A stretch of DNA of 44,605 nucleotides, from sequence record MK759854, one strand, 5' to 3'. Positions within the stretch are counted from its first letter, which is position 1. Every line of letters starts with the position of its first letter. A model generated the notes under the pieces. That model was not told the DNA's origin. It made no database searches and saw only the letters and a program-made list of their open reading frames with translations. A program made the position numbers and the translations under genes. The stretch is from Shigella phage DS8. Positions 17,247 through 20,761 of this stretch are shown here, piece by piece.

Positions 17247-17683
17247 CCCATATCAAAAGGCAAGCCAAAATACGTCAACACTGCAATCTTTATCTGGGCG
17301 AGTCCACACGCCACAGCAGAGAACGCGCCAGCGCTGGCGCTATCGTTGAGAAACGGTATCTGTCCTGGTTGCCATTTGCTAAGCGTTGAATCGTGGCGCT
17401 TCAACTCTATCGTCGCTTTATGCCAATCACCACCAGGAGTCAGGATTATCACATCAGACACCCCTGACCTGACACCTTTCCTTGCGCGCGATGCCAGATG
17501 CTGCACTGAGTTGCTTTTAGTCTCCTGAGATGGATGGAACCACAGCACATCAGGAAACCGATAATCCATCCACCACTTGAACGCTATCAAGTCTGAATCC
17601 TCATGCGGACACTCGCCACGGTAACCATCATCAAAAATTAATACCTTGTCACTCAGCTCATGCTGCTTGAATCGCTTTTTCAC
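17243..17683 (-). CDS. VRR-NUC domain nuclease
   Basis: 146 aa; GTG start with AGGAG RBS 6 nt upstream; segment DVIILTPGGDWHKATIELKRHDSTLSKWQ fits the VRR-NUC pattern; typical partner of phage helicases. Confidence 0.55.
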   Translation of the reverse strand: MKKRFKQHELSDKVLIFDDGYRGECPHEDSDLIAFKWWMDYRFPDVLWFHPSQETKSNSVQHLASRARKGVRSGVSDVIILTPGGDWHKATIELKRHDSTLSKWQPGQIPFLNDSASAGAFSAVACGLAQIKIAVLTYFGLPFDMG

Positions 17684-19604
17684 TATTCTCTCCTGTAAAA
17701 TCTTTTCTGTGGATTATGTCTCGGCCTTTATCGTTAATACGATGTGTGATGCGTTTTGGTGCTTTAATCAACCCAGCATACATCATGAACTGCTTGGCGT
17801 TCTGGCATTTCAGGATTTTCCCCGCCATTGACTTATCATCAAGGTGAGGAAAGATAGCCTTCGCCTTGAACATGTTTTTCATGTGAGTTGCGCCGCCGTA
17901 TGGATAGAAAACCTCATTAGCCCATCCTTCCTTTCCATCACAACGATTAATCCAGTAGCGATACAAAATACCTTCTCCATCCTTCGTTAACTGGACTTTG
18001 AAATCCATAACATCAGCCCACTCATTATCCGTATACGCACGCTCATTCAGTGCCGCATTCGGGTCGCGCAAAACGTGATCGCAATGTCGGCAATAACGAG
18101 CAGTCGGGTCGTTTTTAGTGCCGCAACCATCATCAAAAATCCTGATGCCGTGCTTGTCAAAACCGCAACGGATATAACTGAAAAACTCTTCGCAACGACC
18201 ATCTGGCGACAATGCATCTTTGCCAATGCAGCGGCGCGCATATGGGCTGTTCATTGTTCCGCATTTCGGGCACGGAACTTGTTCACCACTGCGTTTTGAG
18301 CGTTGCGCTTCAGCTTCTTCAAGAATCGGGTCTTCATATAGCTGACCAAGCTCAAACATCGTTCCTGAGAAATCCAGAACCAGATGATCTTCTTTATGAT
18401 ACCCGGCATCAATTTGCTCTTTCTTCAGCAGGCGCATTCCGCGACCAAGAAGCTGGACAAGGAGAGTTAGCGACATTATTTTTCGCAATATTACAGACGT
18501 ATCCCATAGCGGTATGTTTACGCCGGTCGTCAGGCAACCAATTTGGAAAACATATTTAATCTTGCCAGTGTATGCGTCTTTTAATGCCTTGCGTCTGGCT
18601 TTCATGCCCATATCCTCGGTGACGATAGCATAACTTCCTTCGGGTAAATATTTAGCCGCTTCCTGACAGTGTTTTTTACCAGCGCATGTAATAAGCACTC
18701 CGTTCCTGTTTTTAGTCAACTCCATAACCTTGAGCATGATTTTCTGCGTTAGTGTTCCTTGCTCAAGAATTTCTTTCTGCATCTGCTTGAGCTGCTCGGC
18801 AGTAAAATCCTGCGTGCCGTCAACATCTGAACCATGGAAGTTATGCAAGTCATATTTCAAATCATCAACATCATGAAGACCAAAGATTGTTGGCACAACA
18901 AAACCGCGATCTACCATGTACTTTGTATCAATGTTTATTATTTCATTTTTCCAGTACGCACCTTTCATTGATTCAGTACCACGGAATGGGCTACCGGTGA
19001 ATCCAATTGTTATCATTTCATGCCCATATCTTGCCTTGCAGCGCCTGTTAAGTTCAGTAAGTATTACGCCATATTGTGTTGTTGGATTATCACTAATAAT
19101 ATCCTGCCATGGAGCTTGGTGGGACTCATCGATCAGGCAAAATCTTGGGGTAAAATCACTCAATCCACCTTTCTTGACGTCACCATTTGATTCATCTTTT
19201 TTATCAAAAAGTGCGTTAGCGATTGATCCTTCAGTACCGCATATAATAGGGTATGCTGTACTTTTCCTGCCAAGAGATGCGCTATAAAGAGAGTTTTTTA
19301 CACCACACTCCCACATCATTTCAGCATTCTGCTCAGCTATCTCGCCCTGCCTTGAGATTACAAGGCCATCCCACCCCATATCCTGAAATCTACTGCAAAG
19401 CATTGAAATCATCACGGTCTTTCCTGATGAAACAGACGCTGTAACATAGCTTGGTTCAGGTTTCTTGCCAAAATTACGAATAACCTCAGCGCACTTTGCG
19501 TAAACAAGCCATTGGTAATCATACGGCTCTATGGAACCTATTTTTATTGATTGCTTTAATCTATCTATATCAATCTCTGAAATCATTTTGTCTATTTTGT
19601 GCAT
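17658..19604 (-). CDS. superfamily 2 DNA helicase with C-terminal zinc-ribbon region
   Basis: 648 aa; Walker A SSGKT, motif II LIDESHQ, TGSPFR, motif VI LLGRGMRL; C-terminal CPKCG...CRHCDH cysteine clusters. Confidence 0.8.
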   Translation of the reverse strand: MHKIDKMISEIDIDRLKQSIKIGSIEPYDYQWLVYAKCAEVIRNFGKKPEPSYVTASVSSGKTVMISMLCSRFQDMGWDGLVISRQGEIAEQNAEMMWECGVKNSLYSASLGRKSTAYPIICGTEGSIANALFDKKDESNGDVKKGGLSDFTPRFCLIDESHQAPWQDIISDNPTTQYGVILTELNRRCKARYGHEMITIGFTGSPFRGTESMKGAYWKNEIINIDTKYMVDRGFVVPTIFGLHDVDDLKYDLHNFHGSDVDGTQDFTAEQLKQMQKEILEQGTLTQKIMLKVMELTKNRNGVLITCAGKKHCQEAAKYLPEGSYAIVTEDMGMKARRKALKDAYTGKIKYVFQIGCLTTGVNIPLWDTSVILRKIMSLTLLVQLLGRGMRLLKKEQIDAGYHKEDHLVLDFSGTMFELGQLYEDPILEEAEAQRSKRSGEQVPCPKCGTMNSPYARRCIGKDALSPDGRCEEFFSYIRCGFDKHGIRIFDDGCGTKNDPTARYCRHCDHVLRDPNAALNERAYTDNEWADVMDFKVQLTKDGEGILYRYWINRCDGKEGWANEVFYPYGGATHMKNMFKAKAIFPHLDDKSMAGKILKCQNAKQFMMYAGLIKAPKRITHRINDKGRDIIHRKDFTGENSEKAIQAA

Positions 19605-19612
19605 TTCATCAC

Positions 19613-20689
19613 CTATGGCATGTCAGGCCAATAAGAGTTGCTTTTAGATCTGTTCTCACTTGGTGCAAGTAATTGCAAGTTATGCCAGCAGTGAAGACCA
19701 CAAACCAATTTGCTATTTATTGGCACTATGTGATCAACCTGCATACCAAGAACGCCAGCCATCTCATAAACCTTTTCAATTAAAACCCTTTCATGTTCAA
19801 ACCATGATGGTATCGCCCGTCTTTTAAGATACTTATATTTACGCTGATGATATCTAACAACACCCTTGTTTTTCTGTCTCCACTGCTTTGACTTCTCGCT
19901 ATGCTTTTCCTTGTTTTTATCGTAATAACGTTTTGATTTTTCATTTATCTCTGCCTTTTTTAATTTATAAATATTTTTCCTGAACTCAGCCTGACATTTT
20001 TTGCAATCAGGACGTAGTCCATCAAGAGATGATTTATTTTTATTAAAGTTTTCTTCGTTCGCCTCAAGAACAGATTTACACTTAGAGCAAATCTTCAATC
20101 CATTACCAAGGTATCTTGCTCTCTTCCCTTTATTACCAGAGCACTTCTTGCATATGGAACTAAAGCCAAGTTTCATACTTTTATCTGCATAAAAGTATTC
20201 GCTTGTAGCTGGAAGAACGGACCTGCATTTTGAGCACATTTTCTCATTTAAAACTTCAGTTGAAATCCTGAGGTTGCATATCCTGTTGTCAGCGCGATTT
20301 TTGTTTATGTGCTCAATTTTCGCATTCCCAATATTATCTCCATTAACATAAATCCATGCGAGTCTTTGCGCCCAATATTGATTGCCATCTATGCTAATTC
20401 TCAGATAACCACTAACATCAAGACAGCCAGCAATATCTCCTACTTTAACACGAGAACCTGTCTTTATCTTACGCGTGAATATCCAAGTATCTGGGTTGTA
20501 ATCAAGAACCTCCCTTAGCCTCTCCTGTGAAATGTGTGACTTTCTTTTGGTTCCTGCATTTTTTAACCCTGCACTTTCCTGAGCAACATTTTGCTTTTGC
20601 AGTTCCGATAAACTCATTTCCGCAAACCTCGCACTTCTTGACGGTGATAGCCATTTCTTATCCTCTATTGTAACGATTAATTGTTTCAT
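19613..20689 (-). CDS. HNH endonuclease with two HNH-type motifs and internal CxxC repeats
   Basis: IEHINKNRADNRICNLR (HNH_3-like) and C-terminal DHIVPINS...HCWHNLQLLAPSENRSKSN; four K-x-C-x-K-C units between them; N-terminal ~60 aa and true start are uncertain. Confidence 0.65.
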   Translation of the reverse strand: MKQLIVTIEDKKWLSPSRSARFAEMSLSELQKQNVAQESAGLKNAGTKRKSHISQERLREVLDYNPDTWIFTRKIKTGSRVKVGDIAGCLDVSGYLRISIDGNQYWAQRLAWIYVNGDNIGNAKIEHINKNRADNRICNLRISTEVLNEKMCSKCRSVLPATSEYFYADKSMKLGFSSICKKCSGNKGKRARYLGNGLKICSKCKSVLEANEENFNKNKSSLDGLRPDCKKCQAEFRKNIYKLKKAEINEKSKRYYDKNKEKHSEKSKQWRQKNKGVVRYHQRKYKYLKRRAIPSWFEHERVLIEKVYEMAGVLGMQVDHIVPINSKLVCGLHCWHNLQLLAPSENRSKSNSYWPDMP

Positions 20690-20714
20690 TGCAAGTAACG
20701 ATTGATTGTTTCAT
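20670..20714. repeat. 20-bp direct repeat (1 mismatch) duplicating the start codon and first codons of the HNH ORF
   Basis: GTAACGATTAATTGTTTCAT (20670-20689) and GTAACGATTGATTGTTTCAT (20695-20714); each ends in CAT, which is ATG on the minus strand. Confidence 0.55.
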
Positions 20715-20761
20715 ACGAGTAAATTACAATGAATCCACATCATCGTCAACAGGAAGATTTT

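Follow-up and report, generated by a model that had tools for sequence, protein, structure and literature searches.

In the insertion sequences IS1 (InsA/InsAB′) and IS3 (OrfA/OrfAB), a small upstream ORF encodes a DNA-binding regulator, a zinc-finger protein in IS1, which binds inverted repeats that overlap the promoter. The catalytic ORF of these elements is reached by a −1 frameshift at A6G or A6C. The cI gene of phage lambda with its promoter P_RM represents another type: a leaderless, autoregulated repressor gene that begins at the transcription start or a few nucleotides beyond it, with palindromic operators lying across the promoter. In phage T4, the free-standing endonuclease genes segC, segF, mobA and mobC overlap upstream ORFs, with coupling in the case of mobE, and this arrangement is thought to limit their translation (PMC2988022). 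The T4 endonuclease I-TevI represses its own late promoter through an overlapping operator (PMC2988022).

We analyzed a 44,605-nt stretch of DNA from Shigella phage DS8 (sequence record MK759854), referred to here as the window. As in T4, where such genes are of the HNH or GIY-YIG type, a free-standing nuclease gene occupies an intergenic slot between conserved replication genes, and its start overlaps an upstream ORF. As with I-TevI, the predicted promoter of the homing endonuclease is overlapped by a site, here a putative operator, that may limit its own expression.

Sequence comparison places the window with the Vi II-E1/Skate-like Salmonella siphophages. The Salmonella phages Skate, Vi II-E1 and LPSTLL are 95–96% identical to it and show no indel across the cassette region. 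The cassette lies between the divergent primase and helicase genes. With the neighboring primase gene as an anchor, 54 viral loci were fetched. The site is empty in 19 of these loci, with a gap of about 70–80 nt between helicase and primase; 24 loci carry the cassette and 9 carry other inserts. Presence and absence of the insert at this one intergenic primase/helicase site is the polymorphism expected of a free-standing homing endonuclease. By its distribution, then, this appears to be a mobile, free-standing homing-endonuclease cassette, for which cleavage of the empty allele or biased inheritance is only predicted. It contains two palindrome-containing 20-mers, a sigma-70-like promoter, a Cys4 zinc-ribbon ORF and, in the +1 frame, the body of an HNH nuclease. 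The parts of the coding region are as follows.

20618–20689, minus strand: upstream extension of the mechanical ORF, MKQLIVTIEDKKWLSPSRSARFAE, apparently non-coding as an N-terminus; relatives have +1 stops here (L009, L010, L036, L040, L063 and others).
20661–20665, minus strand: Shine-Dalgarno sequence GAGGA of the zinc-ribbon ORF, 7 nt 5′ of its ATG; GAGGA, GAGGG or GAGGT in relatives.
20502–20654, minus strand: zinc-ribbon ORF of 50 codons plus TGA, starting MAITVKKCEVCGNEF and ending KGGS before the stop; full translation MAITVKKCEVCGNEFIGTAKAKCCSGKCRVKKCRNQKKVTHFTGEAKGGS, then stop.
20626–20630, minus strand: internal Shine-Dalgarno-like GAGGT, 8 nt 5′ of the +1-frame ATG at 20617; an annotated RBS in Skate.
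19613–20617, minus strand: HNH endonuclease gene from its likeliest start (MSLSEL...), 334 codons plus TAG, with HNH_3, two CxxC...CxxC units and a C-terminal HNH/EndoVII-like motif.
20541–20564, minus strand: A-rich junction of lysine codons (AAA AAA at 20564–20559, AAG AAA at 20546–20541), where relatives with different bodies lose homology.

The zinc-ribbon ORF lies inside a mechanical ORF of 358 codons (19613–20689), and the long frame is +1 relative to the ribbon. The initial annotation had pointed to an ATG opening a 50-codon alternative frame and to its resemblance to the CxxC units found later in the nuclease. The ORF at 20654–20502, with GAGGA 7 nt upstream, is borne out by conservation of the ribbon frame, while the resemblance is only generic (weak PHROG matches). 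Among 23 distinct sequences of ribbon codons 1–29, the third codon position varies in 28 of the 29 codons, the first in 15 and the second in 13; pairwise differences number 2907, 1271 and 1182 for the third, first and second positions. After about codon 41 the variation moves to the third position of the +1 frame. Cys8, Cys11, Cys24, Cys28 and R34 are invariant down to about 50% identity; a basic tail follows the cysteines and is unconserved beyond codon ∼38. This pattern indicates that the ribbon frame is under purifying selection, which at the amino-acid level is strong for residues 1–34.

Two CxxC-type knuckles with conserved spacing sit on a predicted beta ribbon, the arrangement of a Cys4 zinc ribbon or treble clef. 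The AlphaFold (AF2) model has four short strands within residues 5–29, a pLDDT of about 80 over residues 1–30 and a disordered tail. The best Pfam match of the ribbon was DUF2116, with 12–18 bits against a gathering cut-off of 26.8. A PDB fold search gave no significant match, and Pfam, PHROG and PDB together returned only sub-threshold or generic Zn(Cys)4 matches. The product is thus modeled as a zinc ribbon outside the curated families. An exhaustive phmmer search with the 38-aa ribbon returned mostly tandem-ribbon proteins, which helps to identify the type of module. The tandem-ribbon proteins and the [ribbon]n-HNH and HNH_3 nucleases (P0004, P0005, P0055, P0057, P0072) share the same K-x-C-x2-C-G-x2-F...C-S-x2-C-R plus basic-helix module. 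In those proteins the modules are in-frame domains of one polypeptide, whereas here a single module has an ORF to itself, in a different frame from the nuclease.

The ribbon also occurs as a stand-alone ORF or before a gene with its own Shine-Dalgarno sequence and ATG (L099, L101/102, L110, L132, L134, L137–140, L147 and L166). The ribbon ORF has been called, as a protein of 45–50 aa, in only 3 database clusters. Taken together, the out-of-frame ORF is a genuine zinc-ribbon gene of 50 codons, conserved but mostly left out of annotations, and it overlaps the 5′ end of the nuclease gene.

Pfam HNH_3 (PF13392) matches residues 105–144 of the 358-aa ORF with 33.9 bits against a cut-off of 24.8. 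The C-terminal half matches phrog_99 (E = 9e-44) and phrog_1035, endonuclease VII (E = 1.5e-20), and it contains the beta-beta-alpha-metal motif VDHIVPI...HCWHNLQLL...N. The gene product is a predicted HNH endonuclease (HNH_3; PHROG 99/1035).

Its N-terminus has been annotated inconsistently, with MKQLIV, MSLSEL and other starts. In the GenBank records of Skate, Vi II-E1 and LPSTLL the nuclease begins at the equivalent of ATG 20617 and not at 20689. Several lineages have +1 stops at ribbon codons 3–5, which cut off ATG 20689. Over the first ∼60 residues of the long ORF, variation falls on long-frame position 2, which is position 3 of the ribbon frame. From these alignments, the long ORF starting at 20689 is not the gene, and its ATG is not a conserved start. 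The initial annotation had described these first ∼60 residues as non-protein-like, and they are indeed unconserved as protein, with no genuine start at 20689. It had also proposed a comparison with homologues to locate the true N-terminus; that comparison excludes 20689, through the relatives' +1 stops, and agrees with the annotated 20617 equivalents in the three Salmonella phages.

Upstream of the two ORFs lie the repeats and the predicted promoters.

20721–20749, minus strand: P1, TTGACG (20749–20744) followed by TGTAAT/TAATTT (20728–20721) at a spacing of N15/17, read from the sequence.
20695–20714, minus strand: repeat copy 1 (O1), ATGAAACAATCAATCGTTAC, with the imperfect palindrome core GAAACA-N6-CGTTAC at 20712–20695; kept in relatives, as well as in the cassette's second-site copies.
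20670–20689, minus strand: repeat copy 2 (O2), ATGAAACAATTAATCGTTAC, with the palindrome core at 20687–20670; its right arm overlaps the P2 −10 hexamer.
20667–20694, minus strand: P2, predicted sigma-70-like promoter TTGCAA-N16-TACAAT, with a scan match of 9/12, containing the second 20-mer.

Relatives with an empty site have a promoter-like sequence directly 5′ of the helicase gene that is homologous to 20749–20721. This indicates that the cassette entered the interval separating the helicase promoter from the start of the helicase gene. P1, which scored below the threshold of the promoter scan, is thus the presumptive ancestral helicase promoter, kept upstream of the insertion. The cassette appears to bring the whole span from the first 20-mer to the nuclease stop, and second-site copies in relatives each have their own 20-mer pair.

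The two 20-mers, ATGAAACAAT[C/T]AATCGTTAC, had been noticed before as a repeat. They are real, with 19/20 identity and a spacing of 25 nt. Their earlier interpretation as a duplicated start of the HNH gene does not stand: both are palindromic, overlap a promoter that is conserved, and move together with the cassette. Within each 20-mer an 18-nt core forms an imperfect palindrome with the consensus GTAACG-N6-CGTTAC. The core pattern GWAACR-N6-CGTTAC occurs at only these two sites in the 44.6-kb window, against 0.42 expected. Relatives keep both copies, and distant lineages have single ones.

In P2, the cassette's own predicted promoter, the −10 hexamer ends 12 nt 5′ of the ribbon ATG. The architecture TTGNNN-N1-2-GTAACG-N6-CGTTAC-AAT, in which the right arm overlaps the −10 hexamer, precedes the ribbon ORF in about 30 lineages. 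From the end of the −10 hexamer to the ribbon start codon there are 5–22 nt across lineages; in five loci the distance is 5–6 nt, a spacing typical of leaderless mRNAs. At 29 sites the palindrome arms are 82.8% complementary, and double changes were found at 3 of the 6 positions (for example GTGACG/CGTCAC). A palindrome that lies over the core hexamers and is conserved with the gene, as at an operator-controlled promoter, was thus found, with two exceptions. In L159 the palindrome-promoter stands before a methyltransferase gene and the ribbon ORF is absent, and in phage 15G (L099) the ribbon ORF has no palindrome. An exact operator search of viral contigs gave mostly chance matches; when a −35 was included there were 3, of which 2 precede ribbon ORFs and 1 precedes a methyltransferase.

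The 20-mers therefore look like palindromic control sites in the cassette promoter rather than a duplicated gene start. Since the palindrome stays the same next to different nuclease bodies, its obvious candidate binder is the ribbon protein, which may repress its own promoter. The exceptions in L159 and phage 15G count against this putative link between ribbon and operator. Spacing also suggests that transcripts starting at P2 in the window would have a leader of only about 4–5 nt, in which case GAGGA would be carried only by transcripts from the upstream helicase promoter.

Ribbon ORFs were gathered from the primase-anchored relatives, by tblastn on 50,697 phage records (74 matches) and by a metagenome scan. 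Without any indel, 74 phage records share this two-frame layout, as do dozens of contigs from metagenomes; the lineages that have it number more than 16, among enterobacterial, Vibrio and marine phages. Hosts of the ribbon-body loci range from Salmonella, E. coli and Klebsiella to Vibrio and Listonella, and loci also come from marine samples. At least four kinds of body are joined to the ribbon. They include HNH_3 with CxxC units and HNH, CxxC units with HNH, and HNH_3-AP2; further bodies are a 'DNA-binding domain protein', a T5orf172-like protein and a KEA..YFTGKPC family, and Rha-like genes also recur with the module. Clearly degenerate bodies were seen in a few relatives (L044/L113 and L083/L106). 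In the nuclease-linked cases the body is always in the +1 frame, and in none is it in-frame or +2. No close in-frame ribbon-nuclease relative was found among 54+30+36 loci or 5.8 billion proteins, where only ORFs of 45–50 aa appeared. No relatives of the cassette were found in 185,579 bacterial and archaeal genomes, and no published description of this module was found in the literature.

The lysine run is the mosaic boundary at which the conserved ribbon gives way to variable nuclease bodies; no other place permits a +1 slip. The earlier suggestion of a recombination scar is thus right in part: it fits the lysine-rich junction, where different bodies are joined, and fails for the 20-mers, which are palindromes.

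We consider the most likely reading to be a pair of overlapping genes in which the nuclease begins at ATG 20617, behind the Shine-Dalgarno sequence GAGGT, and we would give it about an even chance of being correct. The interval between the helicase promoter and the helicase gene would have received a free-standing homing-endonuclease cassette with two overlapping genes. Gene 1 (20654–20502) would encode a Cys4 zinc-ribbon protein of about 50 aa with a basic tail. Gene 2 (20617–19613) would encode the HNH nuclease in the +1 frame from the internal GAGGT-N8-ATG inside gene 1, so that 116 nt would be dual-coding; ATG 20689 and the codons that follow it would not be translated as part of the nuclease. 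O2 overlaps the −10 of the predicted cassette promoter, and O1 lies between that promoter and the ancestral helicase/primase promoters. The palindromes would act as operators, probably bound by the ribbon protein, and transcription would then be self-limited; the putative operator sequence GAAACAATTAATCGTTAC is the proposed target of the ribbon peptide. Translation of gene 1 would occlude the internal start and may keep the nuclease scarce. Nuclease bodies would be swapped 3′ of the lysine-rich junction, with the module of promoter, ribbon gene and internal start retained.

Two tests bear on the internal start, and both are inflated by shared ancestry: no +1 stop occurs in ribbon codons 8–35 in any of the 34 nuclease-linked variants (about 16 lineages), and a Shine-Dalgarno sequence with a start codon in the +1 frame inside the ribbon ORF is present in 21 of the 34, against 2.9 expected (17 against 2.2 for ATG with a Shine-Dalgarno sequence). 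Only 3′ of the 20617 start is the +1 frame maintained free of stops. In synonymous shuffles the probability of an open +1 frame was 0.35–0.9 per variant; for independent lineages these values would multiply to about 0.001. Among the own-start or stand-alone ribbon variants, 8 of 13 have +1 stops in codons 8–35. On a conservative count of codon types, those making a +1 stop were 5 of 14 upstream of codon 8 and 0 of 8 downstream (Fisher p = 0.12, not significant). Stand-alone ribbon ORFs have an ATG at codon 16 about as often, and descent or codon bias therefore explains some of the start enrichment. The internal start varies in position and type (ATG at codon 12, 13 or 16; GTG at 8, 11 or 13). 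L084, with an intact nuclease body, has no +1 ATG, GTG or TTG inside the ribbon ORF and is the only variant without a candidate; the +1 starts of L117, L126, L127, L129 and L130 are GTG only, without a Shine-Dalgarno sequence, and marine variants are among those of this type. Two more points count against an internal start. The nuclease would bear an unconserved N-terminal extension of 25–35 aa, and in-frame [zinc ribbon]n-HNH and -HNH_3 proteins (P0055, P0057, P0072) make a fusion biologically sensible as well.

The same observations bear on a programmed +1 ribosomal frameshift, which we regard as plausible and yet doubtful. Translation would start at ATG 20654, and tRNA-Lys would slip from AAA to the overlapping AAA or AAG, at AAG AAA G (20546–20540) or AAA AAA T (20564–20558), to yield a zinc-ribbon-HNH fusion together with an excess of the free 50-aa ribbon protein, much as in IS1 and IS3 but in the +1 direction. 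This would account for the position of the body, which all nuclease-linked variants (16 or more lineages, 4 or more body families) have in +1 and none has in-frame or in +2, for the absence of an own start codon near the conserved N-terminus of most bodies and for the lack of any +1 start codon in L084. At the junction, a frame-0 AAA with A or G as the next base is present in all variants; the body's first CxxC comes directly after the lysine run in Bas80, L090 and variants like them; and in-frame ribbon-HNH and ribbon-HNH_3 architectures are known. However, the codons after the candidate AAA are GTC, TGC, GAA, AAC, GCT, GGT and similar, with no stop and no hungry or rare codon. No stimulator is conserved across junction types, the overlap-region RNA fold has an MFE z-score of 0.04, and there is no Rfam match. 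A basic tail rich in Lys would contain A-runs in any case. Far 5′ of the junction the +1 frame is already kept open, for which frameshifting has no need, and a Shine-Dalgarno sequence with a start codon in +1 is over-represented. A slip of the ribosome is therefore currently less supported than the internal start at ATG 20617. A broader proposal built on it, which we judge unlikely, is a portable self-limiting module with a leaderless or short-leader promoter, a palindromic operator, a zinc-ribbon repressor and swappable bodies joined by programmed +1 frameshifting. The ribbon would then have two roles, repressor when free and N-terminal DNA-binding domain when part of a rare fusion nuclease, an IS1-like strategy in the +1 direction. 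Other routes between the frames were rejected. A −1 (= +2) frameshift would enter a frame that reads MQEPKESHTFHRRG and closes after 14 codons, with the body in +1. For transcriptional slippage, runs of A4–A6 are too short to be efficient, and several variants have only A4–A5 at the junction. A frameshift at the frame-0 stop (TCT TGA after GGGAGG) would skip the conserved ERLREVL and offers poor tRNA re-pairing, and the motif is absent from other junctions.

The position of the ribbon ORF at the extreme 5′ end of the transcript, overlapping the nuclease start, together with a tail unconserved past codon ∼38, would also suit a purely regulatory upstream or leader ORF, in which translation rather than the peptide matters and the nuclease is made from 20617 or a non-canonical codon. 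We find this quite improbable given the strong purifying selection on residues 1–34, the invariant Cys4 and R34, and the existence of the ribbon module as a tandem domain in many proteins. The term 'leader peptide', offered by the initial annotation, fits the small ORF in part and undersells it: the four Cys and the fold are conserved to about 50% identity and there are stand-alone gene copies. Its other suggestion, a mutational frameshift or sequencing error, would make the locus a once in-frame ribbon-HNH gene broken by a pseudogene mutation or a miscount in the A6 homopolymer, with the 20-mers as an insertion duplication scar. Deletion of one A from the A6 run at the frame change would indeed fuse the frames, and the degenerate bodies of L044/L113 and L083/L106 could be read in the same way. 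Yet the indel-free layout is identical in independently sequenced phages of 95–96% identity, and it is found throughout the 74 phage records and the metagenomic contigs, including diverged lineages with different junction sequences. The body is intact and conserved, no in-frame relative exists in the material searched, and the repeats are palindromes that distant lineages keep as single copies. An accident of this kind is extremely improbable.

Nearly all annotations of this phage group lack the conserved small gene. The recurrence of promoter, palindrome, ribbon ORF and overlapping +1 gene as one module suggests a general way for selfish nucleases to bring tightly limited expression control with them. 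If the +1 frameshift proved true, the locus would add a kind of recoding that is rare in bacteria, and natural variants of it would be plentiful for study.

Compared with the systems described above, the differences are specific. The T4 nuclease genes overlap resident phage genes, by 11–24 bp, whereas here the upstream ORF is a dedicated ribbon gene that travels with the nuclease, overlaps it by 116 nt and is joined to several nuclease families. I-TevI itself binds its operator, which resembles the homing site; in the present cassette one palindrome accompanies varied bodies, and the ribbon protein is therefore the probable binder. The locus is like IS1 and IS3 in having a small upstream ORF, a catalytic ORF in another frame and an A-run at the junction. 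Unlike those elements, its body is in the +1 frame, its −1 frame is closed and its enzyme is a nuclease rather than a transposase, so the −1 arrangement of IS1 and IS3 is not present. As with lambda cI and P_RM, the −10 in some lineages ends 5–6 nt before the ATG of the small gene; unlike cI, the putative regulator is a Cys4 ribbon instead of a helix-turn-helix protein, and there is no lysogeny context. The cassette thus appears to differ from known systems in three ways: it has a dedicated mobile small gene, 116 nt of predicted dual-coding sequence and a front module reused across nuclease families. The finding is a conserved gene, seldom annotated, within what appears to be a reusable control module for selfish nucleases, a variation on known kinds and not a new category.

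The cassette of promoter, zinc-ribbon ORF and HNH nuclease lies between the divergent primase and helicase genes, and the features at its two edges are as follows.

20729, plus strand: primase ORF start as listed in the ORF listing
20702-20730, plus strand: promoter-like site TTGATT-N17-TACAAT
19615-19613, minus strand: nuclease stop codon TAG
17658-19604, minus strand: helicase, 648 aa, downstream of the cassette

The promoter-like site shares bases with both O1, the first repeat copy (20695-20714), and the first primase ATG. O1 thus lies between divergent, predicted promoters. In relatives, the primase start is annotated at the second ATG (20762, MRYDW...). Together with the promoter-like site over the first ATG, this indicates that the 11-codon extension between the two ATGs is probably untranslated.

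At the other edge, only 8 nt (19605-19612) separate the nuclease TAG from the helicase ATG (19604). This spacing indicates that the helicase now shares a transcript with the upstream cassette, its original 5′ UTR having been lost. The helicase itself contains two internal zinc-ribbon-like segments (∼residues 444-512), with DUF7577 and Zn_Ribbon_1 matches below the Pfam cut-offs.

The primase/helicase intergenic slot is an insertion hot spot. Other inserts occupy it in two sets of loci (L024, L028, L034; L032, L054-L058): one measures 336 nt, and another is a different HNH_3-AP2 gene, which lacks a ribbon ORF and begins at a start of its own.

In L101/L102, L132 and L137-L139, the ribbon ORF and the same palindrome-promoter stand upstream of non-nuclease genes, encoding a Rha-like regulator and unknown proteins. 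Each such gene has its own SD-ATG within an 8-11 nt overlap, also in the +1 frame. In some of these loci the end of the -10 is 5-6 nt from the ATG, which is leaderless-mRNA spacing. GTAAC/GTTAC motif arrays (…ATGTTACAAAGTAACG-N6-CGTTACAATGTAACACC…) were seen in the viral contigs L149, L152, L160 and L170; they may be a related binding-site cluster in another context.

Some copies (L044/L113; L083/L106) carry frameshifted nuclease bodies and an intact ribbon ORF; these bodies are nucleases in decay or assembly errors.

In related phages (L083, L084, L100 (phage HC8A), L106 and L107), a second copy of the promoter-ribbon module, joined to an HNH_3-AP2 body, is found at another genomic site, so the module moves as one unit.
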